Shown one piece after another: positions 1 to 11,814 of a DNA stretch of 11,814 nucleotides. Numbering within the stretch: position 1 is the first letter of the stretch; the number at the start of each line of letters is the position of its first letter. The notes under the pieces were generated by a model. It worked only from the letters and a program-made list of their open reading frames with translations, had not been told where the DNA came from and did no database searches. Source of the stretch: Planctomycetota bacterium (lineage in GTDB: Bacteria > Planctomycetota > UBA1135 > UBA2386); assembly GCA_027621295.1 (NCBI GenBank), contig JAQCBR010000129.1, positions 1 to 11,814 on the forward strand, written 5' to 3'. The position numbers and the translations under genes were made by a program.

Positions 1-74
1 GTGGGCTGGGCCGGATGTCGGCGGCGGTGCGCTCCGCTGCCGACGCCGGGCTCCCGCTGTCGATCCGCGGCTGA
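1..74 (+). CDS. Probable 3' end of an upstream CDS running off the window start (reading frame starts at base 3; ...GLGRMSAAVRSAADAGLPLSIRG*, TGA at 72..74)
   Basis: Frame 3 shows near-exclusive G/C at third codon positions (strong coding signal for this genome); the other two frames do not. The in-frame stop at 72..74 precedes the next gene. No product assignable from 24 residues. Confidence 0.3.
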   Translation, partial: GLGRMSAAVRSAADAGLPLSIRG

Positions 75-140
75 GCGGGCGCGGGGTTTGGGTGTGGTCG
101 GCCGCCTGGAGGCGGTTACCGTGACGCGCTCGCGCGCCGC

Positions 141-2156
141 ATGGCCGGCGCAGCCGCTCTCCCTCCATCGCAATCGATCCGCATGCTCACCGGACACCCG
201 AAGGGGCTCTACCGCCTGTTCTTCATCGAGATGTGGGAACGCCTGGCCTTCTACACGATGGTCGGGATCCTGCTGCTCTACGCGACCGACACCGAGACCG
301 GCGGGCTCGGGTGGTCGAGCGACGTGGGGAACGAGATCTACGGGCTCTACCTCGCGTTCGTGTACTTCACGCCCTACCTGGGCGGGCTGTTGGCGGACCG
401 GTTCCTCGGCTATCGGCGGTCGGTGCTGATCGGTGGCCTTCTGTTCGCGACGGGCTTCTTCATGCTCGCGTCGGGACAGAAGTGGGCGTTCCCGACCGGG
501 CTCGTCTTCCTCTGCTGCGGGAACGGCTTCTTCAAGCCGAACATCTCGGCGATGGTCGGCAACCTCTACGAGAAGGGGGATCCGAAGCGCGACGCCGGGT
601 TCAACATCTTCTACATGGGGATCAACATCGGCGCGTTCATCGCCAACTTCCTGGCGGCGATCATGCGCAACCAGTGGGCGTGGTACGCGGTCTTCGTCGC
701 GGCCGGCGTCGGCATGCTGATCTCGGTCGTGATCCTGCTGTCGAGCTGGAAGGTGCTCGAGAAGGCGGACGTCGAGCCCGGCAACAAGCCGGGTGACACG
801 CCGTTCGCCGAGATCATGCAGAAGATCCTCGGGCCTGCGCTCGTGCTCGGCGTGATCGGCTGGGCGTTCGCGGCCTACGTGCTGCCGCCGTCGGTCACGA
901 AGCTCGTCAAGGCGACCGACATCGGCTTCCTGATCGGCTCGATCCCGATCCTGCGCTTCTTCGTGCGGCTGTCGCACCAGGCGAAGGAGGAGGAGAAGCC
1001 CGGTCTGCGTGCGCTGCTGCCGATCTACCTCGCGGGCGGGACGTTCTTCATGGTGCTGCACCTGAACGGCAGCGCGATGACCACCTGGGCGAACGAGAAC
1101 ACGGCCCGTCAGCTCGGGCAGTCGGACCCGATCTGTCTGATCGCGGATGCGGTGTGGGTGAAGGGTGACCCGGTCTTCGCGCAGGACGCGCTGCCCGGCT
1201 ACTACGGCAACGCGGCCGACGACCTGCCGCGTCCCAACAAGCTGACGCTGTTCGGTGGCGGGACCGACGAGCAGGCGACGATGTTCGGCAAGAAGAAGAT
1301 GGATGCGGCCAGTCTGGAGGCCCTCACCGCGAATCTGCCGAGCGACGTCCGCGTCGAGGCACTGCCGATCGGGGCCGAGCTGACCGACGAGCAGCGCCGC
1401 TGGAAGAAGTACAGCGTCGACATCTACGACAAGGTCGAGATCAAGGAGGGCACCGACAGCCACGGGCTCCCGAAGATCAGCGTCGAGGTCGCCGACGGCG
1501 CGCCGATCCAGAAGCGCGTCGCGTTCGTCCGCGAGAACGGCGAGGCCGGCGGTGACTACGCGACCTACGTGACCACGCAGGACAAGTTCGACGCGCTCTA
1601 CGTCGAGGGGGCGACCGAGCTCGAGCCGGGGCGCTACGTCCAGCTCGCCAACGCCGAGCTCTACCAGTCGTGGAATGCGTTCTTCGTCGTGCTGTTCACG
1701 CCGCTCGTGATGATGTTCTTCGCGTGGGCTTCGCGACGTCAGATCGACTTCAGCACCGCGCGCAAGATCCTCGCGGGCATGGTCATCACCGCGATCGCCG
1801 CTGCCTTCATGGCGATGGCGGGATTCGTCAGCGACAACGGCGCGGTCAAGGTCAGCGGCATGTGGCTGATGGGCTTCTACGCGATCATCACGGTCGGCGA
1901 GCTGTTCCTGTCGCCGATGGCGCTGTCGCTGGTCACCAAGCTGACGCCCAAGCGCTTCGTCGGGCTGACGATGGGCGGCTGGTTCTTCGCGACCGCCGTC
2001 GGAAACAAGTTCAGCGGGTTCCTCGGCGTGCTGCAGGGAGCGATGGAGCCGGCGATGTTCTTCCTGGTCATCGTCGGGGCGGCCGTCGCGGTGGCGGCCT
2101 ACATCCTGTCGGTGCTGCCGAAGCTCGACGAGGCGATCAAGAAGTACGGGGCGTGA
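141..2156 (+). CDS. Proton-dependent oligopeptide transporter (POT/PTR2 family, DtpT-like di/tripeptide permease) with an ~190-aa hydrophilic insertion
   Basis: The N-terminus reads HPKGLYRLFFIEMWERLAFYTMVGILLLY, matching the PTR2 family signature (FxxEMWERFSYYGM). About 12-14 predicted TM helices follow, with typical POT motifs (GGLLADRFLG, FKPNISAMVG). Start could be ATG 141 or in-frame ATG 183 (MLTGHPKG...); neither has a strong SD. A large hydrophilic block (~aa 320-515) interrupts the C-terminal helix bundle. Confidence 0.9.
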   Translation: MAGAAALPPSQSIRMLTGHPKGLYRLFFIEMWERLAFYTMVGILLLYATDTETGGLGWSSDVGNEIYGLYLAFVYFTPYLGGLLADRFLGYRRSVLIGGLLFATGFFMLASGQKWAFPTGLVFLCCGNGFFKPNISAMVGNLYEKGDPKRDAGFNIFYMGINIGAFIANFLAAIMRNQWAWYAVFVAAGVGMLISVVILLSSWKVLEKADVEPGNKPGDTPFAEIMQKILGPALVLGVIGWAFAAYVLPPSVTKLVKATDIGFLIGSIPILRFFVRLSHQAKEEEKPGLRALLPIYLAGGTFFMVLHLNGSAMTTWANENTARQLGQSDPICLIADAVWVKGDPVFAQDALPGYYGNAADDLPRPNKLTLFGGGTDEQATMFGKKKMDAASLEALTANLPSDVRVEALPIGAELTDEQRRWKKYSVDIYDKVEIKEGTDSHGLPKISVEVADGAPIQKRVAFVRENGEAGGDYATYVTTQDKFDALYVEGATELEPGRYVQLANAELYQSWNAFFVVLFTPLVMMFFAWASRRQIDFSTARKILAGMVITAIAAAFMAMAGFVSDNGAVKVSGMWLMGFYAIITVGELFLSPMALSLVTKLTPKRFVGLTMGGWFFATAVGNKFSGFLGVLQGAMEPAMFFLVIVGAAVAVAAYILSVLPKLDEAIKKYGA

Positions 2157-2165
2157 CCGACGGGC

Positions 2166-2387
2166 TCAGGTCCGCGCGTCGTCGTGCTGATCTTCGGGCT
2201 GTTCTGACGGCGCGGTATTTCCCTGGACGGGGGGCACCCGCCGTCCGCGGCGCCTGAGCGCGTCGCGGAGCAGCCACTCGATCTGGCCGTTGAGGCTTCG
2301 CATCTCCTCGGCCGACCACGCTCGCAGCTCCTCGAGGAGCTCGGGCGGGACGCGGAGCAGGAAGCCCTTTTTGGGTTTGGGTGCCAA
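2166..2387 (-). CDS. Arc/MetJ-type ribbon-helix-helix DNA-binding protein (Arc family), 73 aa, TTG start
   Basis: Translation MAPKPKKGFLLRVPPELLEELRAWSAEEMRSLNGQIEWLLRDAL is the canonical Arc-family N-terminal beta-strand + two helices (K-G-F-L-L-R-x-P-x-E-L; RSLNxxIExLL), followed by a disordered acidic tail. Start is TTG at 2387, 16 nt downstream of the SPFH stop (likely co-transcribed). No obvious SD. Confidence 0.72.
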   Translation of the reverse strand: MAPKPKKGFLLRVPPELLEELRAWSAEEMRSLNGQIEWLLRDALRRRGRRVPPVQGNTAPSEQPEDQHDDART

Positions 2388-2403
2388 GGGGCCGGTCGCG
2401 ATC

Positions 2404-3306
2404 TCAGTGGTAGATGGTGCCGGTGTTGACGACCGGCTGCGTGCCGCGCTCCGAGCAGAGCACGACGAGCAGGTTCTGGACCATCGCGGCCTTGCGCTCC
2501 TCGTCGAGCTCGACGACCCCGCCGGTCTTCAGCTCGTCGAGGGCCATCCGCACCATGCCGACCGCGCCGTCCACGATGCGGGTCCGGGCCGCGATGATCG
2601 CGTCCGCCTGCTGGCGCTGGAGCATCGCGCTCGCGATCTCGGGCGCGTAGGCGAGATGGGCGAGGCGCGCCTCGAGCACTTCGATGCCGGCCATGTCGAG
2701 CCGTTCGGTCAGCTCGCGCGCGAGCTCCTGGCTGACGACGTCGGCACTGCCGCGGAGCGAGGTCTCGCCGGGCCGGGCATCGTCCGCGTCGTACGGGTGG
2801 TTGGCCGCGAGCGTCCGCAGCGCGGACTCGGTCTGCACCTCGACGTACGACTCGTAGTCCTCGACGTCGAACTGGGCCTGGGCGGTGTCGCGGACCCGCC
2901 AGACGACGACGGCGCCGATCTCGATCGGGTTGCCGACCTTGTCGTTCACCTTCAGCCGGTCGCTGTTGAAGTTGTGCGCGCGCAGCGAGACGTCGCGTCG
3001 CACCGTGAACGGGTTGACCGCGAAGAACCCGTCGCGCCGGAGCGAGCCCTTGTACTTCCCGAACAGCAGGATCACCTTGCTGTGGTTCGGGTTGATGAGC
3101 GTCAGGCTGGCGATCATCAGGGCGAACGCGAGCACGCAGCCGAGGCCGGTGAGGAGCGGGGTCAGGAAGGGCTCGTCGGCCTTGCCGTGGATGATCGCCA
3201 TCACGATCCGCCAGATCCCGATGCCGAGGGTGGCGATCGCCAGGATCAGCGTCGGGATGCCGGGGAGGGCGCCGCGGTAGGGGAGTTCTCGGGAGCGTGA
3301 CTGCAT
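2404..3306 (-). CDS. SPFH/Band-7 (stomatin/prohibitin/flotillin/HflK-C superfamily) membrane protein, 300 aa
   Basis: Two N-terminal hydrophobic helices ([23 protein letters not shown]; [21 protein letters not shown]) precede a typical SPFH core ([61 protein letters not shown]...). A coiled-coil-like Ala/Gln-rich C-terminus follows. The annotated 487-aa ORF is trimmed to ATG at 3306: the 187 upstream residues are Arg/Pro/Gly-rich wrong-frame sequence overlapping the helicase gene. AAGG lies ~10 nt upstream of the ATG. Confidence 0.88.
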
Positions 3307-3330
3307 CGTCGGACCTGGCCTTGGGAAAGA

Positions 3331-3354
3331 TTGCAGGATGATATCTTCATGCAA
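3331..3354. promoter_or_regulatory. Imperfect 24-bp palindrome TTGCAgGAtGATATCtTCaTGCAA in the only AT-rich patch of the window, in the helicase-SPFH spacer: candidate operator/promoter element
   Basis: Sequence 3331..3354 has perfectly inverted outer arms (TTGCA / TGCAA) and an inner GATATC core, with one mismatch per side. The local GC is ~45% against ~70% background. It sits 25-48 bp upstream of the SPFH ATG (3306), and TTGCAT resembles a -35 hexamer. Confidence 0.4.
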
Positions 3355-3404
3355 CTGTGGCGGGGCCGCCGAGTTTCGCGGGGTGGCTGGACTCCCGGTG
3401 GGGC

Positions 3405-5363
3405 TCAGCCGTGCTCGTCGACCGCGCCCTCGGGGAGCGCGGCGAGGAAGTCCCGGCCGTATCGCTTGGTCCGCGCCCGGGGGTCGAGGATCACGACCTC
3501 GCCGCGGTCGCCCGCCGTCCGGACGAGGCGGCCGAAGCCCTGGCGGAACTTCAGGATCGCCTCGGGCAGCGTCTGCTCGAGGAACGCATCCCCACCGCGC
3601 GCCTGGATCATCCGCTGGCGGGCCATGGTCAGCGGGTGGTCCGGCTGGCCGAACGGCAGGCGGGTCAGGAAGACGAGCGTCAGCGCATCCCCCGGCACGT
3701 CGATCCCTTCCCAGAAGGTCTCGGTCCCGAGCAGCACGGTGGACGGGTCCTCGCGCTTCCGGCGCAGCAGGTCGCGCATCGGCGCCTCGCCCTGGACCAG
3801 GAGCTCGATGCCGCGCTGGGCCAGCGGGCCGCGCAGCGCGTCGGCGAGCCGGCGGACGAAGTTCCATGACGTGCAGAGCACGAGGGCTGAGCCGCCGTTG
3901 CGGATGGTCCGCGTCTGGATCTCACGCCGGCACGCATCGAAGAAGCCCTGCGGGTCGCCGGACGGGTCCGGCACGTCGACGGGCAGCGTTACTGTCACCT
4001 GGCTCCGGTAGTCGAACGGGGAGCCGAGCCGGAGGGTCTCGACCCGCTCGTGCGCGCCGAGTCGATCGCGGATCCAGCGGAAGCCGGGGTCGCCGCCCGG
4101 ACCGAGCGTCGCCGACACCAGGATGTTGCAGCGGGGCTCGCCGAACTGGTGCTTCTGCAGCGCCTCCGACACGTCGAGGGGCGCCGCCCGAAGGCTGACC
4201 CCGCGCTTCTCCTGCTCGATCCAGCGGACCTTGTCGACGGAGCCCGGGCCGCAAAGGCTCAGGAATACCGCGTGCAGCGAAGTCAGCCCGCGCGCGCGCG
4301 CCTGCAGCTCGGTGCGGAGGTCGACCTTCTCGACGCCGAGCGCGCAGCGGTGGATCTCGGCGGCCAGCTCGGCGAGGAGCTCGGACACCGGGTCTTCGAC
4401 GAGGTCGTCGGGCTCGAGTGGCAGGGTCCCGTTGCCGCGGAGCCGCGCTTCGAGGAGCGCGAAGAACGCCTCCGCCGCCTGGCGCACCTGCTCGAGCAGC
4501 AGCATCGCGTGCGGGTTCCCGTACTCGGCCAGCAGGCTGCGCCGCGACCGGCGGGGGTGCAGGCGCTTCACGTGCCAGAGGACGGAGCCGAGCGTCAGCC
4601 GGAGCCCGAGGCTCTCGGTCGCGATCCGCTCGAGATGGTGGGCCTCGTCGAAGATCGCGATCCGGTGATCGGGCAGGTAGCTCGCCCCGGCCATGCGCAG
4701 CGCGACGTCCGCCATGTACAGCGCATGGTTGACGACGACGATCTGCGCGGAGTCGAGGCGGCGCCGGGACCGCTGGTACGGGCAGTCGTCGTAGTGGGGG
4801 CAGGCCTTGTAGAGGCAGTTGCCGTGCTCGGCCTTCACCTCCTCCCAGACCTCGTCGTCGACGGGCTCCGGGAGCTCGAAGCGCAGCCCGTCCCGCGACG
4901 ACTGGGCCCAGTGCACGACCCGGTTCAGCTGCGCCTCGCGGTGAAGGTCGTCGAAGACGACGCCGCGCTCGCGGTGCGCGAGGTGCATCCGGCGGTGGCA
5001 GATGTAGTGGTTGCGGCCGACGGCGGAGACCGCGGTCCACTCCATCGGCGTGACCGCCTGCAGGAACGGGAGGTCCTTCCGCTCCAGCTGCTCCTGCAGC
5101 GCGATCGTCCGGGTCGACACGATGATCGGACCCTGGCCGCGGTGGGAGACCGCGTGCAGCAGCGCGGGCAGCAGGTAGGCGAACGACTTGCCGACGCCCG
5201 TTCCCGCCTCGGCGAACAGGTGGCGGCCCTCGCGGAGCGCGTGCTCGATCGCGCGCGCGAGCTCGACCTGCTCCGGCCGCTCCTCGTAGCCGGGAAGCCG
5301 CCGCGCGATCACGCCCTCGGGCCCGAGGAACGCGTCGAGGGTGATCGGGTCCGGCGTGCTCAC
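3405..5363 (-). CDS. dinG: ATP-dependent DNA helicase, DinG/XPD (Rad3-related) family with 4Fe-4S domain, 652 aa
   Basis: Walker A is [18 protein letters not shown]. Four Cys lie between Walker A and B (YICHRR ... [15 protein letters not shown]), the Fe-S cluster signature of DinG/XPD. DEAH box is IFDEAHHL. C-terminal helicase motifs are LVLCTSWNF and [29 protein letters not shown]. The start is set to GTG at 5363 because (i) the 238 upstream residues of the 890-aa ORF are low-complexity R/P-rich and overlap the neighbouring gene, (ii) the GTG overlaps that gene's TGA (GTGA), and (iii) GGAG lies 12 nt upstream. The resulting N-terminus ([42 protein letters not shown]) looks like a native DinG N-terminus. 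Confidence 0.88.
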
Positions 5364-6130
5364 TTCAGGAAGTCGCTCCGGTGCGCGAGACGGCTGGAGC
5401 GGGGCCTCGCCGTGTCGTGGAGGACCGGCAGCGTGGTCGCTTCGCTCTCGATCCGGGCGCCGAGCGGCGTGTGGAGGCCGACCCAGTGTCGGGCGCGGTG
5501 GGTGTTCCGCGTCTCGTCGTCGAACTCGTAGGACACGCGCCGTTGGGGTGGGTACGCGCCGGGGACCGGACGGTGGTCGAGGACCCTGGCGAGGGTCAGT
5601 CGCCCCTGGCTCAGCAGCAGGCGCTGCCCGAACGCGCCGCGGAGGTAGATCCCGAGGACGAACAGCCCGGGGAGGCCAGCCAGTCGGAGCCAGCGAGAGA
5701 ACGGGGACCACGGCGGTGCGCGGTGGGAGCCCTCGATCCTCGCGAGCTCGGGCGCGTGGGGCAGGAACTCGATCCGGACATCGGTCCCGACGGCAGGCGG
5801 GCGGACTTCGGGTGGGACGAAGGACGAGGCCTCGACCTGCGCGTCGCCCGGCCGCGGCTCGAACCGGAACGTGATCCGAGCACCTCCGCCGCCGGGCCAG
5901 TCGTCCGGTGCGCTCGCCACGACCTTCCCGGTCGTGCGCGACGAAGATGCATCGAGCGCGTCGTCGCCGAGCGGGAGCACGTCCCGGGCATTCGCGAGGA
6001 ACAGGATCGCACCGGCGATCGCGGGCAGCACGAGGACGGCGGCGAGGACGCCCAGGGGCCAACCCCTGCGGAGCCATGCCCCCGCCCGCGGCCGTCGCGG
6101 GGCCGCGGGGAAACCGTCCAGATCGCCCAT
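5360..6130 (-). CDS. Double-pass membrane protein with two TM + small beta-rich domain repeats (DUF3592-like architecture), paralog B, 256 aa
   Basis: MGDLDGFPAAPRRPRAGAWLRRGWPLGVLAAVLVLPAIAGAILFLA is TM1, followed by a beta-rich domain (GKVVASAP...ARITFRFEPRPG...VGTDVRIEFLP...RIEGS). TM2 is LRLAGLPGLFVLGIYL, followed by a second small domain (RRVSYEFDDETRNTHRARHW). Start is trimmed to ATG 6130 (AAGG SD 6 nt upstream, 11 nt after the stop of the upstream paralog). Clearly paralogous to 6142..7053. Its stop overlaps the helicase start. Confidence 0.7.
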   Translation of the reverse strand: MGDLDGFPAAPRRPRAGAWLRRGWPLGVLAAVLVLPAIAGAILFLANARDVLPLGDDALDASSSRTTGKVVASAPDDWPGGGGARITFRFEPRPGDAQVEASSFVPPEVRPPAVGTDVRIEFLPHAPELARIEGSHRAPPWSPFSRWLRLAGLPGLFVLGIYLRGAFGQRLLLSQGRLTLARVLDHRPVPGAYPPQRRVSYEFDDETRNTHRARHWVGLHTPLGARIESEATTLPVLHDTARPRSSRLAHRSDFLK

Positions 6131-6141
6131 GTCCCGCCCTT

Positions 6142-7053
6142 CTAGCCCAGCCAGGCGTGGGGCGGAAGCGCGCGGGAGGTCGATGCGGATGGAGCGAAGT
6201 CGGACGCGGCGACGAGACGGTTGGCCTGGGGCCGCTTGCGGTCGTGGATCACGCAGAGTCGCGGCAGGTCGGACGAACGGACAGTCTGCCACTCGGTCGG
6301 AACGACGGGCGCGAGGCCGCGCTTGGGGGTCCAGAGCACGCGGGGCGCGGTGGGAGGGCGTGCGGCGGCGACCGACATTCGCTCGCCGAGCTCCGAGCGG
6401 GCGAGCAGCCAGTGCCGCCCCTCGCGGACGTTCGCCGAACGATCGCGGAACCGGAACCGGACCTCGAGCATCGACGGGATCATGAACGGGACGCGTCGTA
6501 CCTCGACCGGCTCGGCGATCGCGACGTCGCCATCGCGCAGCACGCGGCGCAGCCGCAGCACCGACGCGAGCCAGAGGATCAGCAGGCCGGCGCCCGGGAC
6601 GACCGTCGACCAGAACGCGGTCCCGGTCGCGTCCATCGGTTGGACGAGCGATCCGCCGAGCACCCGGCTGTCGCCGGTCCGCGCCGAGTACTCGATCTCG
6701 ACCTCATCGCCCACCCGGTGCGCGCCCGGCGTGAAGAAGCTCGCGCCCTCCTGCGGGACTCCGTCGTCGGCCGCGAAGCGGAACCGTACGAGGTCCATTG
6801 CATCCCCTCGCCAGCTGGACCGGGGGGCGACTGCGGTCACGGTGCCGACGAGGACCTCGCGTTCCCGGTCGAGTGTACGGTCGGCCTCCGTGTAGTACGA
6901 GCCGCGGTCGGAGATCCACAGCAGCAGCGTCAGCACGCCGCCGTAGACCAGCAGCACGGCTCCGGCGAGGCACATCCCGAACGCCCGCCAGACCACCGCG
7001 CGCGCGCGCACGTCGCGGGGTGCCGGCGGGATGTCGCGGAGCTCGAGAGCCAT
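6142..7053 (-). CDS. Double-pass membrane protein with two TM + small beta-rich domain repeats (DUF3592-like architecture), paralog A, 303 aa
   Basis: MALELRDIPPAPRDVRARAVVWRAFGMCLAGAVLLVYGGVLTLLLWI is TM1, followed by a beta-rich domain (LVGTVTAVAP...LVRFRFAADDG...VGDEVEIEYSARTGDSRVLGGS). TM2 is GAGLLILWLASVL, followed by a second domain (EVRFRFRDRSANVREGRHWLLARSELGERMS). Motif order matches paralog B (PAPR...W.R; TFRF/VRFRF; RHW; C-terminal LPxL..HD..RP..RL..SDF). AGGA/GGAGG lies 9-15 nt upstream of the ATG. Confidence 0.7.
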   Translation of the reverse strand: MALELRDIPPAPRDVRARAVVWRAFGMCLAGAVLLVYGGVLTLLLWISDRGSYYTEADRTLDREREVLVGTVTAVAPRSSWRGDAMDLVRFRFAADDGVPQEGASFFTPGAHRVGDEVEIEYSARTGDSRVLGGSLVQPMDATGTAFWSTVVPGAGLLILWLASVLRLRRVLRDGDVAIAEPVEVRRVPFMIPSMLEVRFRFRDRSANVREGRHWLLARSELGERMSVAAARPPTAPRVLWTPKRGLAPVVPTEWQTVRSSDLPRLCVIHDRKRPQANRLVAASDFAPSASTSRALPPHAWLG

Positions 7054-7093
7054 GGAGCCATCCTAGCCTCCACAGACCGCTGCGGGGGCGCTG

Positions 7094-7109
7094 GCGATCC
7101 TTGCATCGC
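7094..7109. promoter_or_regulatory. Short inverted repeat GCGAT-ccttgc-ATCGC containing TTGCAT in the divergent intergenic region between paralog A and pfp
   Basis: Seen directly in the 148-bp divergent spacer 7054..7201. Function unknown. Confidence 0.2.
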
Positions 7110-7201
7110 GCCCGAGCGCCCAAGACCATCTCGATCCCCTCGGCGAGCCGCAACCGACGGCCGAGCCGCGCGCCCGATCCCCTCCCTCCCGTCTCCGATC
7201 C

Positions 7202-8506
7202 ATGACCCAGGTCTTCGACCGTCCCACGACTCCCGCCCACCGCTACGACCGCGTGGCGATCCTCTTCTCCGGGGGGCCCGCACCGGCCGCGAACGCGGTG
7301 ATCTCGTCGGCGGCCGTGTCCTTCCTGCGCAACGGGACGAGCGTCGTCGGCATCAAGAACGGCTACTCGAAGCTCGTCGAGTTCGGGCCGGATCGCCCGT
7401 TGGTCGAGGGCCGCGACTACCAGCTCCTCGACCACAAGGCGCTGCGGCGGACCCGGAATCGCCCCGGAATCATGGTCGGCACCGCGCGGACCAACCCGGC
7501 CAAGCAGGTCCGGGAGCCAGCCCATCTCGACGACGCCGAGCGGACGGCGCCGCTGCGCACGGTCTACGAGGCGCTGCGCTCGATCGGCGTCGATGCGCTG
7601 ATCTCGATCGGCGGCGACGACACGCTGAAGACCGCGAACATCTTCCGAGCATGGCAGGATCGGCTGCCGAGCACCGAGCGCCGCATCTCCGTCGTCCACG
7701 TCCCGAAGACGATCGACAACGACTACAACGGCATCGACTTCACGTTCGGATACTTCACCGCCGTCGACACGCTGGCCGGACTGATCCGCAACCTGCTGTT
7801 CGACGCGGAGGCGACGCAGGCCTACTTCCTCGTCGAGTCGATGGGGCGCAGCGCTGGCTGGCTGGCCTACGGGGCTGCGATCGCCGGCGAAGCGAGCCTC
7901 GTGATCGGCGTCGAGGACATCCGCGACGACATGCGGACGACCGAGGAGATGGTCGACCCGAACACCGGGGAGACGAGCGTGCGCTCGATCATGAACATCG
8001 AGGCGGTCGTCGAGCACATCGTCGAGGTGATGATCGCGCGTGAGGACGAGGGCAAGGACTACGGGGTGATCGTCCTCGCCGAAGGTCTCGCCGAGCTCCT
8101 GCCTTCGGAGCGCCTCCAGAAGGTCGGCCGCGACGACCACGGTCACATCTCGATCGGGTCGCTGAACCTGTCGCGGATGTTCGAGAAGCTCGTGCCCGAC
8201 GCCTACGCGGAGCGCACCGGGCGTGAGCGCAAGGTGAAGGGCGTCCAGCTCGGCTACGAGGCCCGCTGCGCGGCGCCCCACGCGTTCGACGTCGTGCTCG
8301 GCAGCCAGCTCGGTGTCGGCGCCTACCGTGCGCTGGCGGAGAAGGGGCTCGACCGCGTGATGATCTCGGTCATCGGCCAGCTCGACCTCCAGTACGTCGA
8401 CTTCGCGAAGCTCGTCGACCCGAACACGCTGAAGACCGTCGTCCGGCTGATCGAGCCGGGCAGCGACTTCCACCGGCTGGCCCGGCTGCTCGAGACGTAC
8501 CACTGA
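7202..8506 (+). CDS. pfp: 6-phosphofructokinase, PFK-A family; active-site residues predict pyrophosphate-dependent type (PPi-PFK), 434 aa
   Basis: PFK-A motifs are present: RVAILFSGGPAPAANAVI (GGxxPGxN-like nucleotide loop), ISIGGDDTL and PKTIDNDY. Established knowledge: ATP-PFKs carry GGDGS and PGTIDND, whereas PPi-PFKs carry Asp and Lys at these two positions (E. coli Gly104/Gly124 equivalents). Here both are the PPi-type (GGDD, PKTIDND). Confidence 0.9.
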   Translation: MTQVFDRPTTPAHRYDRVAILFSGGPAPAANAVISSAAVSFLRNGTSVVGIKNGYSKLVEFGPDRPLVEGRDYQLLDHKALRRTRNRPGIMVGTARTNPAKQVREPAHLDDAERTAPLRTVYEALRSIGVDALISIGGDDTLKTANIFRAWQDRLPSTERRISVVHVPKTIDNDYNGIDFTFGYFTAVDTLAGLIRNLLFDAEATQAYFLVESMGRSAGWLAYGAAIAGEASLVIGVEDIRDDMRTTEEMVDPNTGETSVRSIMNIEAVVEHIVEVMIAREDEGKDYGVIVLAEGLAELLPSERLQKVGRDDHGHISIGSLNLSRMFEKLVPDAYAERTGRERKVKGVQLGYEARCAAPHAFDVVLGSQLGVGAYRALAEKGLDRVMISVIGQLDLQYVDFAKLVDPNTLKTVVRLIEPGSDFHRLARLLETYH

Positions 8507-8514
8507 CGGTACGC

Positions 8515-8540
8515 GCGGCGCCTTTGCTCCCGAGCGCCGC
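8515..8540. terminator. GC-rich inverted repeat GCGGCGC-N12-GCGCCGC between convergent pfp and CRTAC1-family genes: possible bidirectional terminator hairpin
   Basis: The 7-bp perfect stem lies in the 40-nt convergent gap 8507..8546. No U-tract follows on either strand, which is common in high-GC genomes but weakens the call. Confidence 0.2.
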
Positions 8541-8546
8541 CGCCGG

Positions 8547-10415
8547 TCACTGGATGGTGATCGTCACCGCGTCCGGGAACACGTTGCGGACGCCCGGGTA
8601 GCCGGCGGGATCGAGCACGATCGCAGTTGCGCGCAGCGTGATTCCGGACAGGAACGGCAGGTTCGGGATCGTCAGCGCCGAAGTCGCGGCGGTTCCGTTC
8701 GCGGGGATCGTGCCGAGCGGCGTCGGCAGCAGCAGGTTGCCGACGCCCAGCGCGTAGACGGTCAGCGAGTCGACCTGGATCGGCAGCGTCAGGCCGTTGG
8801 GGAGCGGCGTGGTCCCGGCCGGCGACGCCGACAGGAACATCAGGTAGGGCAGGCCCGCGTCGTTCGGCGACGCGAGGCGGAGCCCCGCCGTCGTGCCGAC
8901 CTGCGGCACGCCGACGAGGTCGAAGCGCGGCTCGACGATGTCGACGACCTGGTCGACGGCCACGCCCGTCAGGTGCTGCTCGGTGCCGGAAGGCCAGCGG
9001 ACGAGGATCTCGTCGACAGTCGTCGCCGCGCCGAGCCCGAACTGCAGCCGGCGGTCGTTGCCGGTCTTGTAGCCGATGCCGCTCCGGACCCACTGGCGCT
9101 GCACGTGGCTGCTGGTGCGGACCGTCACGCGTGCGCCGAAGCCGTCCCGGTTGCTGACCGTGCCCTCGGTTCGGACCTTCAGCCAGTGGCCGCGCGAGAC
9201 GTTGTTCCGGTAGACCTGGACCGGCTGCGGGTTGCCGAGGAAGCGGTCGAAGTTGAAGCGCTCGACCAGGTCGACGCCGCCGTCCTCGTCGAGGTCGACC
9301 GGGACCGCCGCATACTGGCCGTAGAAGCTCGAGATCCCGAGCGGGAACGAGACGTCCGTCCACGGACCCGGCGCCGACGTGCCCGGGTGCCGGAACAGCT
9401 GGTTGGGCGCCGCGTAGTGGACGACGTGCAGGTCCTGCCAGCCGTCGTTGTCGTAGTCGAACCAGTGCGTCGACCAACCGAGGCTGATGCCCGACAGCCC
9501 GTAGGTGTAGGTGTCGTCGACGTAGACCTGCGCGTTCGGGTCCCACTGCAGGAACAGGTGATCGCTCGGGCTGTCCGTGCAGAAGATGTCGACCCCGCCG
9601 TCGCAGAACACGTCGAGGAAGTCGACGCCCATGCCGTCGATGGCCTGGTTGCAGTTGATCTGCGCGCCAATGTCCGCGAACGTCCCGTCGCCGAGGTTCC
9701 GGAACATCGTGTTGGGCACGCCGTTGTTGCCCTTGTCGTTCGCGATGTAGAGGTCGGGCCAGCCGTCCTCGTCGTAGTCGATGAACGGAGCGACGAGCGT
9801 CAGGCCGAGGTGGTCGACGCCGGCCGCGGTGCCGACCTCGACGAAGCCCGTGCCGCCGAGGTTGCGGAACAGGTAGTTGACCTCGCCGAGGCTCGTCGAC
9901 GCGGTCTGGCGGTTGCCGACGTAGACGTCGGTGAAGCCGTCGCGGTCGTAGTCGCCGAACGACAGGCTGAACACCGACGACGACGAGTTGATGCCGAGTG
10001 CGGGCGCCTGGTCGACGAAGCGGCCGGTCCCGTCGTTCACGTAGAGCTGGAGCGGCGTGCGCCAGTTGCCGACCAGCACGTCCTGGTCGCCGTCGTTGTC
10101 GAAGTCGAACGCGCCGATCGCCGCGGGCGCGCCCGCGATGCCGAGGCCCGACACCGCGGTGTCATCGGTGAATTGGAGGTTCCCCTGGTTGCGGAACAGC
10201 CGGACCGTCAGGCCGCCGGCGTCGGGCATGACCAGGTCGACGTCCCCGTCCCCGTCCACGTCCACGCACGCGAAGCCGGTCCCGTAGGCCGTCGTCGTGT
10301 TCTGCAGGCCCGTGACCCCGGCGCGGGCGGTGAGGTCGGTGAACCCCTGGCCCAGGGCGAGGGACGAGCAGACGGCGCAGGCGGCCGCCGACCGGAGAGC
10401 GCGGATTCGAGACAT
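8547..10415 (-). CDS. Secreted CRTAC1-family protein: signal peptide + multiple FG-GAP/VCBS beta-propeller repeats + C-terminal ASPIC/UnbV domain, 622 aa
   Basis: N-terminal signal peptide MSRIRALRSAAACAVCSSLALGQG. Repeated Ca-binding-like DxDxDGxxD motifs follow (DVDGDGDVD, DFDNDGDQD, DYDRDGFTD, DYDEDGWPD, DYDNDGWQD, DLDEDGGVD) with FRN/LFRN repeats typical of FG-GAP blades. C-terminal GHWLKVRTEGTVSNRDGFGARVTV is the ASPIC/UnbV signature. Confidence 0.85.
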   Translation of the reverse strand: MSRIRALRSAAACAVCSSLALGQGFTDLTARAGVTGLQNTTTAYGTGFACVDVDGDGDVDLVMPDAGGLTVRLFRNQGNLQFTDDTAVSGLGIAGAPAAIGAFDFDNDGDQDVLVGNWRTPLQLYVNDGTGRFVDQAPALGINSSSSVFSLSFGDYDRDGFTDVYVGNRQTASTSLGEVNYLFRNLGGTGFVEVGTAAGVDHLGLTLVAPFIDYDEDGWPDLYIANDKGNNGVPNTMFRNLGDGTFADIGAQINCNQAIDGMGVDFLDVFCDGGVDIFCTDSPSDHLFLQWDPNAQVYVDDTYTYGLSGISLGWSTHWFDYDNDGWQDLHVVHYAAPNQLFRHPGTSAPGPWTDVSFPLGISSFYGQYAAVPVDLDEDGGVDLVERFNFDRFLGNPQPVQVYRNNVSRGHWLKVRTEGTVSNRDGFGARVTVRTSSHVQRQWVRSGIGYKTGNDRRLQFGLGAATTVDEILVRWPSGTEQHLTGVAVDQVVDIVEPRFDLVGVPQVGTTAGLRLASPNDAGLPYLMFLSASPAGTTPLPNGLTLPIQVDSLTVYALGVGNLLLPTPLGTIPANGTAATSALTIPNLPFLSGITLRATAIVLDPAGYPGVRNVFPDAVTITIQ

Positions 10416-10428
10416 GAGGTCGGTCGAA

Positions 10429-10461
10429 TAGACTCGGAGAGTCTACCCCGCAACGCCGGGG
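10429..10461. promoter_or_regulatory. Two adjacent inverted repeats directly upstream of the CRTAC1-family gene start
   Basis: TAGACTC-gga-GAGTCTA (10429..10445; 7-bp perfect arms) and CCCCG-caacgc-CGGGG (10446..10461). The first begins 14 nt from the ATG at 10415. No SD is apparent. Confidence 0.3.
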
Positions 10462-10570
10462 CGGCCGGGCGAGGTCGGCGCGGTCTCTGGGTTCGCGGCC
10501 AGCCATCGGCGGATCCGTGCGCCATCGACGGCGCGGGCCCGGGGACCACAGCGCCGGTGCCATGGGTGGT

Positions 10571-10954
10571 TCAGCCTTCGTCCGCGGACCGGCCGACGCC
10601 CCTCGCCAGCAGGATCCAGCCGGCGATCAAGAGGACCCCGCCGATCGGCGTGACCGCGCCGAGCCAGCGAGGCCCGGTGACCGCGAGGAAGTACAGCGTG
10701 CCCGAGAACACCGCGGTCCCGGCGAGGAACGCCTGGGCGGCCTTCTCCGCACCCCTCTCACCGAGCGAGGCCCGCCACGCGCAGGCGAGCAGGGCGAGCG
10801 CGTGGAAGAACTGGTAGCGGACCGCGATCTCGAACGTGTCGGCGGTGCCGCGCTCGTCGAGAAGGGCCTCGAGCCCGTGCGCGCCGAACGCGCCGAGGGC
10901 GACCGCGAGGCCGGCGACCAACGCGCCGGACTGGAAGATCCGTTCTGGGGTCAT
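10571..10954 (-). CDS. DUF423 (YgdD/TMEM256-like) small inner-membrane protein, 127 aa
   Basis: ALVAGLAVALGAFGAHGLEALL...AVRYQFFHALALLA matches the DUF423 hallmark (GAFGAHGL ... YQ.YHAL.LL). Four predicted TM helices. The ATG at 10954 lies 7 nt after the kinase stop (likely co-transcribed). Confidence 0.8.
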   Translation of the reverse strand: MTPERIFQSGALVAGLAVALGAFGAHGLEALLDERGTADTFEIAVRYQFFHALALLACAWRASLGERGAEKAAQAFLAGTAVFSGTLYFLAVTGPRWLGAVTPIGGVLLIAGWILLARGVGRSADEG

Positions 10955-10961
10955 CGGGGAT

Positions 10962-11814
10962 TCAGGCCTTCGGGTAGGTCGCGTTCAGTGCGGTGACCGC
11001 CTCGTCGTAGCGGCAGCGGACCTCGGCGTAGCGCTCGATGTGTTCGGCCGACGCCGTCACGTCGACGAGTCCGCGATCGAGGTCGAGGGACGCGCGGCAC
11101 GCGTGGAGCGAGAGGTCGGACTCGCCTTTTGCCCGCCGCCACGTCCAGAGCGCCTGGACCGCGGCGCCCATCGCGGCCGCATCCGCATCGACGCCGGCGC
11201 GGACCGGCACGCTGGTGACCGCGGCGACGACTTCACGCCACGTCTGGCTGTGGCTCCCGCCGCCGGTAAGCCTCAGCTCGTCGATCCGGACGTCGAGCGC
11301 GCGGAGCCGGTCGAGCAGACGGCCGAGCGCGAGCGTCGCACCCTCCATCGCCGCGCGCGCGAAGTGGGCCTGCGTCGTCGTGGTCGGGCGGAGTCCGAGG
11401 AAGCCCGCGGTCGCGGTCGGCAGGTCGGGGCTCCGCTCCCCGGTGAAGAACGGCACGCAGAGCACGCCGTCGCTGCCGCAGGGGACCGACGCGGCCGCAC
11501 GTTCGAAGGCGTCGAGGTCCAGCCCGAACAGTCCGCGGACCACCTCGGTCGCGACGGTGGCGTTCATCGTGCAGCCGAGCGGGAGCCAGCCGCCGGCGCT
11601 GCCGCAGAACGGTGCGATCTCGCCCTCGGGGTCGCAGACCGGCGCGTCGGCGTGCGCGAACACGGTCCCCGACGTGCCGAGGCTCAGCACCGCGACGCCG
11701 GTCGCGACCGCGCCGGCACCGAGGGCTGCCGCCATGTTGTCGCCGGCTCCCGCCGCGACGAGGACGTCGTCGCCGAGCCCGAGCTCGGCCGCGAGCTCGG
11801 GGCGGAGCGTGCCG
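10962..11814 (-). CDS. FGGY-family carbohydrate kinase (xylulokinase/glycerol-kinase-like), C-terminal portion; 5' end lies beyond the window end
   Basis: GTSGTVFAHADAP ... FLGLRPTTTTQAHFARAAMEGATLALGRLLDRLRALDVRIDELRLTGGGSHSQTWREVVAAVTSVPV matches the FGGY C-terminal domain (GTS.. ; GGG(A/S)xSxxWxQ(I/V)xAD(V/I)xxxPV). The reading frame stays open to the window edge (…LRPELAAELGLGDDVLVAAGAGDNMAAALGAG…). Confidence 0.85.
   Translation of the reverse strand, partial: GTLRPELAAELGLGDDVLVAAGAGDNMAAALGAGAVATGVAVLSLGTSGTVFAHADAPVCDPEGEIAPFCGSAGGWLPLGCTMNATVATEVVRGLFGLDLDAFERAAASVPCGSDGVLCVPFFTGERSPDLPTATAGFLGLRPTTTTQAHFARAAMEGATLALGRLLDRLRALDVRIDELRLTGGGSHSQTWREVVAAVTSVPVRAGVDADAAAMGAAVQALWTWRRAKGESDLSLHACRASLDLDRGLVDVTASAEHIERYAEVRCRYDEAVTALNATYPKA

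Follow-up and report, generated by a model that had tools for sequence, protein, structure and literature searches.

The 11,814-nt stretch from the Planctomycetota bacterium assembly GCA_027621295.1 (contig JAQCBR010000129.1, positions 1 to 11,814 of the forward strand), referred to below as the window, has a GC content of about 70% and encodes 10 proteins, with a run of five genes on the minus strand between positions 2166 and 7053. These five genes fall into two units. The first is an operon coding for two paralogous membrane proteins, here called A and B, and a DinG/YoaA-type helicase, which is vertically inherited and specific to the lineage of an uncultured Planctomycetota clade, and in which A and B may act as a dedicated partner or tether of the helicase. 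The second codes for an SPFH/Band-7 membrane protein and an Arc-type ribbon-helix-helix (RHH) protein and, judging from its occurrence in other genomes, appears to be a separate, autonomous and probably autoregulated module. An earlier annotation made from the letters of the window without database searches (the sequence-only reading) had united all five genes in a single membrane-tethered helicase module, and the five minus-strand open reading frames (ORFs) that it listed are present exactly where it placed them.

Protein A (6142-7053, minus strand, 303 amino acids (aa)) is a DUF3592-like protein with two predicted transmembrane (TM) passes, assigned from its ORF, its AlphaFold2 model and a family hidden Markov model (HMM). 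Its gene is followed after 11 nt by that of B (5360-6130, minus strand, 256 aa), a second and faster-evolving copy assigned from its paralogy to A, a weak DUF3592 match and its AlphaFold2 model. The stop codon of B overlaps the start codon of the helicase gene (3405-5363, minus strand, 652 aa) in the sequence GTGA (5360-5363), an arrangement indicative of translational coupling.

The conservation of this arrangement was followed from both sides. A helicase-first scan using one genome per GTDB species gave 15 loci from Planctomycetota whose helicases exceed 50% identity, comprising 13 full-length helicases at 53-67% identity and two partial ones at 66% and 94%, while the next relatives, from the Opitutales, Syntrophomonadaceae and others, share 36% identity or less. 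All 13 of the Planctomycetota loci for which upstream sequence is available have one or two genes of the A/B family directly upstream of the helicase; no family gene was found with tblastn and the family HMM beside more than 60 DinG genes of the outgroup (36% identity or less). The membrane-protein-first scan of metagenomes gave 27 loci, and the helicase is the next gene in each of the 21 with enough downstream sequence, the remaining six contigs stopping before the position of the helicase. Three distant family members (profile E-values of ~1e-17 to 1e-29) likewise have the helicase as their next gene, and at P0104 the following gene overlaps by 4 nt.

Taken over the 38 related loci in which both gene types are present, a family gene lies directly upstream of the helicase in every case, and in 35 the end of the last family gene runs 4 nt (NTGA) or 8 nt into the start of the helicase gene, the exceptions being two loci with gaps of 71-134 nt and one whose junction was not resolved. 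The pairing persists down to 53% helicase identity and some 25-30% membrane-protein identity, the membrane proteins having diverged this far while the helicase holds at 53-68%. Two family copies are found in about one third of the loci (second copies in L010-12, L014, L015, L099, L101, L121, and L126); an upstream copy of the conserved A type (HMM E-values of 1e-80 to 1e-105) is then followed by a divergent copy of the B type (E ~1e-31 to 1e-37 where the loci are distant). The overlap with the helicase is always made by the last family copy, whichever copy that is. The co-translation which the sequence-only reading had proposed from the GTGA overlap is in keeping with these counts, and the recurrence of membrane-protein homologs upstream of a DinG-type helicase, which it had named as the means of checking its module, is found for the A/B-helicase part. 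With a family gene always upstream and 35 overlapping junctions, a membrane-associated helicase module is a reasonable proposal as far as A, B and the helicase are concerned; the SPFH and RHH proteins, which had been counted in, are not members of it.

The flanks of the operon also bear on its history. The window carries genes for a POT transporter, a PPi-type phosphofructokinase (PFK), an ASPIC/UnbV protein, a DUF423 protein and an FGGY kinase (Pfam assignments of the window proteins), and the synteny of PFK, DUF423, FGGY and POT is partly kept across the clade loci, with PFK being lost from loci at 53-59% helicase identity as the flanking synteny decays. The slower divergence of the helicase, the faster divergence of the membrane proteins and the partly retained flanks indicate a core operon rather than a mobile defence island.

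The helicase itself is a conventional protein. It has Pfam matches to Helicase_C_2 (129 bits), DEAD_2 (30.7 bits) and DEAD, and aligns with Escherichia coli DinG (6FWR) at an E-value of 3.4e-55, with its Walker A motif (AGTGVGKS) and DEAH box (DEAHH) in register. The four Fe-S cysteines of the two proteins also correspond, those in YIC, GNC, KAC and DDC of the helicase matching YVC, ASC, RNC and REC of DinG, so that the motifs, domains and all four 4Fe-4S cysteines of the XPD/Rad3/DinG family of Fe-S superfamily-2 DNA helicases are in place, as the sequence-only reading had called it. There is no exonuclease domain. The best curated model is that of YoaA in NCBIfam (NF053712), at 514.3 bits against a cutoff of 680. 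An identity as CasDinG (Csf4) was considered and rejected, with TIGR03117 scoring 93.5 against a cutoff of 400 and CasDinG structures reaching E-values of ~1e-8. Like the SPFH and RHH proteins discussed below, the helicase is an ordinary member of a known family.

Proteins A and B can be aligned over their full length (BLASTP E-value 4e-20, 26% identity) and AlphaFold2 gives both the same architecture, at pLDDT values of 78 for A and 90.5 for B, in agreement with their earlier description as paralogous double-pass membrane proteins. In the models a short N-terminal segment leads into the first of two long TM helices that pair with each other; a five-stranded beta-barrel lies between these helices, and another beta-barrel follows the second. 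In the topology predicted for A, an N-terminal IPPAPR motif is cytoplasmic, the first OB-like barrel after TM1 is periplasmic and the second OB-like barrel after TM2 is again cytoplasmic. The motif belongs to a PPxPR motif of the family, in which P9, P12 and R13 are invariant among 32 A-like proteins. Averages over the same 32 proteins give the cytoplasmic N-terminal segment a conservation of 0.76 and a net charge of +4.6, barrel 1 a conservation of 0.48 and a net charge of -3.7, and barrel 2 a conservation of 0.67-0.71 and a net charge of +5.4. This pattern fits a topology with both termini inside, and constraint lies on the cytoplasmic face.

The family appears from its sequence matches to be a divergent two-barrel branch of DUF3592 (PF12158), since B has a sub-threshold match to this model over aa 182-251 (17.3 against a gathering score of 25.3) and seven of 20 family members match it, with a best E-value of 2.2e-7; A itself has no match. 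The modelled TM/beta-domain/TM layout of A and B is that of DUF3592. As word-indexed protein searches yielded only four to nine relatives, an exhaustive HMM search was used instead, and it returned 2018 cluster representatives at E-values of 1e-3 or below and 91 at 1e-30 or below, most of those listed being of 250-290 aa and of the same layout. In protein A, barrel 2 is interrupted by 31 additional residues (232-262, window 6268-6360; pLDDT below 50), an insertion that is limited to the close relatives of the window and is present neither in B nor in almost all other members. Some distant relatives are fused repeats (P0121 of 541 aa, P0132 of 546 aa, P0139, P0149, P0151 and P0157 of 609 aa) with two or three TM/barrel/TM/barrel units per polypeptide, two of these, P0121 and P0139, having a lower-GC-like composition.

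The top Foldseek matches of the A and B models in the PDB are exclusively OB-fold nucleic-acid binders, namely SSB, RPA70 DBD-A/B, LEF-3, POT1, Teb1 and PriB. The models support the naming of the barrels as OB-like, and binding of single-stranded DNA (ssDNA) by them is only a lead.

A role for the first unit can be proposed along the following lines. The PPxPR motif, the basic OB-like barrel 2, or both would bind the helicase and possibly ssDNA, and the membrane protein would tether or regulate the helicase, which is taken to be a housekeeping repair enzyme, at the membrane as a dedicated accessory subunit. By analogy, it would fill the role that chi (HolC) has for E. coli YoaA, and the complex would serve the replication fork or DNA repair at the membrane and not phage defence. 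E. coli YoaA requires chi for a functional helicase complex and chi mediates the interaction with SSB (PMC9826845, PMC12122834, PMC11213134), a small dedicated accessory protein thereby linking YoaA to SSB-coated ssDNA. Like YoaA, the helicase described here is an XPD/DinG-family Fe-S protein of about 640 aa with no exonuclease domain and has YoaA as its best NCBIfam model. It differs in falling short of the YoaA equivalog cutoff, with 514 bits where 680 are required, and in its proposed partner, an unrelated membrane protein that has two passes and a pair of OB-like barrels and is encoded in the same operon, as holC is not.

Several points weigh against this proposal. The pairing is confined to one lineage and shared ancestry therefore adds to the counts given above; the physical contact between A/B and the helicase is a putative one. 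The OB matches are weak, none reaching an E-value of 0.001 and per-domain TM-scores being ~0.4-0.55. Moreover, DNA binding does not follow from an OB fold, and the predicted topology places one of the two barrels in the periplasm. A clade-specific insertion or extension of the helicase that could act as a docking site was sought and none was found, and for this reason the chances that A and B are a dedicated partner or tether of the helicase are considered about even, which still makes this the favored reading. The more specific version, in which the tandem membrane proteins with their OB-like barrels would be obligate subunits that bind ssDNA or act as adaptors and anchor the YoaA/DinG-type helicase to the cytoplasmic membrane, is doubtful.

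The same observations have to be set against explanations in which there is no such partnership. The genes could be merely co-transcribed, sharing a promoter and overlapping codons through lineage history while their products serve unrelated processes such as the envelope and DNA repair. The restriction of the association to one clade would be expected from this, as would the helicase having no docking feature of its own, and the unrelated PFK, POT and DUF423 flanks are likewise syntenic in part of the clade. However, while the synteny of those flanks decays, the junction between membrane protein and helicase is kept at all 38 loci, and it withstands the gain or loss of a second copy, since the overlap with the helicase is made by the last copy in each case. 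The concentration of constraint on the cytoplasmic face of the membrane protein also speaks against co-transcription alone, which we consider somewhat unlikely. In another explanation, A and B would be transmembrane sensors, with the periplasmic OB-like barrel reading an envelope signal and the cytoplasmic barrel switching the helicase on or off. The predicted two-pass topology with one barrel on each side of the membrane is compatible with a sensor, and so is the rapid evolution of the periplasmic barrel, which is common in ligand-sensing domains; yet the proteins have no signalling domain or known sensor fold, which leaves a purely architectural idea that is very unlikely to be correct.

The second unit begins with the SPFH gene (2404-3306, minus strand, 300 aa), whose product has N-terminal TM segments and matches Band_7 (PF01145) at 76.8 bits against a gathering score of 23.6. 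The RHH gene (2166-2387, minus strand, 73 aa, TTG start) follows after 16 nt, and its product, which has tblastn homologs immediately after SPFH in other phyla, matches Arc (PF03869) at 22.3 bits against a cutoff of 20.4 and is further labelled as an Arc-like repressor in PHROG and as an 'Arc family DNA-binding protein' by NCBI. Both assignments, and the palindromic character of the 98-nt spacer between helicase and SPFH, were anticipated by the sequence-only reading. The spacer contains a 24-bp palindrome, TTGCAGGATGATATCTTCATGCAA, with the core GATATC (3331-3354), 25-48 nt upstream of the SPFH start; from its sequence and its presence at homologous loci it is the probable RHH operator and promoter region of the pair.

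When SPFH was used as a tblastn query against a plasmid collection, which includes some mislabelled chromosomes, homologs of 42-65% identity were found in Deinococcus, Bacillus, Qipengyuania, Nonomuraea, Bosea, Parabacteroides, Prevotella and Acetoanaerobium. In most of these loci a small RHH homolog, whose annotation varies between Arc family, HicB family antitoxin and hypothetical, lies 10-60 nt after SPFH, the other neighbors being unrelated. The pair is spread over at least six phyla and is found outside the clade in Deinococcota, Bacillota, Bacteroidota, Actinomycetota and Alphaproteobacteria. The palindrome accompanies it, with the consensus TATC-N4-TGATATCA-N4-GATA and an invariant TGATATCA core; it precedes SPFH in 23 of the 25 loci that have an RHH gene and in none of the three that lack one. 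Besides the window, it was identified at L003, L010-L018, L079, L090, L091, L093, L094, L096, L097, L103, L105, L109, L116, L126, L130 and L131, and in most of the high-GC loci it holds the only GATATC in 4-18 kb. An Arc domain above the gathering score and a palindrome at its own promoter, serving as candidate operator, are the features by which the RHH protein resembles the Arc/MetJ repressors.

It is most likely that the RHH protein represses its own promoter through the TGATATCA-centred palindrome, an assignment drawn from the comparison of loci. The autoregulation suggested earlier is thereby retained for the SPFH-RHH pair and dropped for the helicase operon, since the pair has unrelated neighbors elsewhere, has its own conserved operator, and is missing in about 12 of the 28 clade loci with sufficient sequence, following the helicase in the other 16 or so. 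The same three facts remove SPFH and RHH from the helicase module, and the pair adjoins the helicase here only through lineage synteny. In two loci (L010, 9965-11779; L015, 9930-11345) there is an extra 1.4-1.8 kb of DNA between helicase and SPFH-RHH, showing that the two units can be split; that of L015 carries an ORF of ~428 aa. On the small plasmid pDrdIV of Deinococcus wulumuqiensis (L130, 2203-5914), SPFH-RHH is situated amid toxin-antitoxin and Abi genes (AbiEii/AbiEi, a Fic fragment and AbrB/MazE) and insertion sequence elements, and so the module can also travel on mobile DNA.

Against this separation stands the co-location itself, which at about 16 of 28 loci makes a looser functional link between SPFH-RHH and the helicase possible. 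In its full form such a link would unite the five genes in one system, in which a membrane-tethered helicase would serve defence, abortive infection or the response to envelope stress, with SPFH as scaffold for A, B and the helicase and RHH regulating the whole cluster. All five genes do lie on one strand, and this same-strand adjacency of helicase, SPFH and RHH is what misled towards a five-gene system. There are also helicases within one or two genes of SPFH-RHH in other bacteria, these being a RecQ in Qipengyuania (L093, 969-2738), a DEAD/DEAH helicase in Deinococcus sp. NW-56 (L090, 4340-5764) and a PcrA in B. thuringiensis (L091, 1-1254). However, these are only three of 11 annotated contexts from outside the Planctomycetota, eight having none, and a general adjacency of SPFH-RHH and helicases was therefore rejected and the cases treated as chance. 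Together with the independent operator, the varied neighbors across six phyla and the loci lacking the pair, this leaves the five-gene system highly improbable.

The defence part of that system fares no better. The PADLOC typeIV_DinG models do match the helicase, but as generic DinG similarity, the YoaA model giving 514 bits and Csf4 93.5. A search of PADLOC-DB v2 yielded no complete system, with no match for A, B or RHH and one marginal match for SPFH (E-value 0.009). The operon has housekeeping, syntenic flanks, the GC content is uniform along the window without discontinuity, and no CRISPR-like repeat array, Cas gene, integrase or mobile-element mark was found in the window, nor was any tRNA in a window-wide scan. 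A defence function of the helicase locus, as the sequence-only reading had entertained, is unlikely.

Both units can be compared with known systems. The A/B family shares the TM/beta-barrel/TM layout of DUF3592, for which the literature offers hints of functional context only (PMC12482557; bioRxiv 10.64898/2026.07.15.738315), but A and B score below the Pfam gathering score and their branch has a second barrel after TM2, the invariant PPxPR and an obligate position upstream of the helicase. CasDinG (Csf4) of type IV-A CRISPR and other defence DinG proteins belong to the same superfamily as the helicase, which the PADLOC typeIV_DinG models match; here, in contrast, there are no csf genes and the helicase gene is part of a vertically inherited core genome. 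Zorya (ZorAB with the ZorC/D helicase-nuclease) is alike in concept, having membrane proteins beside a superfamily-2 helicase, whereas none of the five proteins has a PADLOC Zor match, there is no MotAB-like channel and the distribution is neither patchy nor island-like. Stomatin/NfeD and HflK/C operons have an SPFH/Band-7 domain with an N-terminal membrane anchor in common with the second unit. In these the difference lies in the partner, as no NfeD is present among the 10 proteins of the window, an absence already remarked upon in the sequence-only reading, the HflK equivalog model gives 15.7 where 159 is the cutoff, and the SPFH protein is instead accompanied by an Arc-type RHH protein with a conserved palindrome as its putative operator. 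No description of a DUF3592-helicase pairing or of an SPFH-RHH pairing was found in the literature, and the invariant, translationally coupled combination of a two-barrel DUF3592-like protein and a DinG/YoaA-type helicase appears to be undescribed, as does the SPFH-RHH module with its palindrome.

As for the remainder of the window, its sequence is identical to freshwater and other metagenome contigs. No Rfam family was matched in it, and a scan of positions 2100-7300 for sigma-70 promoters and terminators gave no sites, a result of little weight for a planctomycete of 70% GC. The POT/PTR2 transporter (141-2156, plus strand) is unusually long at 671 aa, with ~180 residues (roughly aa 330-510) between the two halves of its fold lying outside the Pfam PTR2 match. 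This long form is kept clade-wide at 60-78% identity.

DinG/YoaA helicases are widespread repair enzymes, and to our knowledge E. coli, with its chi protein, is the only case in which the way they are recruited is understood. Since chi occurs largely in Proteobacteria, the YoaA-like helicases of other bacteria must have different partners, and an invariably co-translated, membrane-anchored partner would be a different answer to the targeting of DinG/YoaA, lineage-wide in these Planctomycetota. If the obligate-subunit version of the proposal were true, no complex of an XPD/DinG-family helicase before this one would have been tethered to the membrane, and it would be a functional substitute for recruitment by chi and SSB. 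It might then act in membrane-coupled DNA processing such as fork repair at a membrane-attached nucleoid, DNA uptake or DNA export, and a branch of DUF3592 would gain its first function. The SPFH-RHH pair and its conserved 24-bp candidate operator would constitute a cross-phylum regulon for an uncharacterised SPFH subfamily, and the pairing of A and B with the helicase would for the first time place a DUF3592-type protein in a functional context that can be tested.

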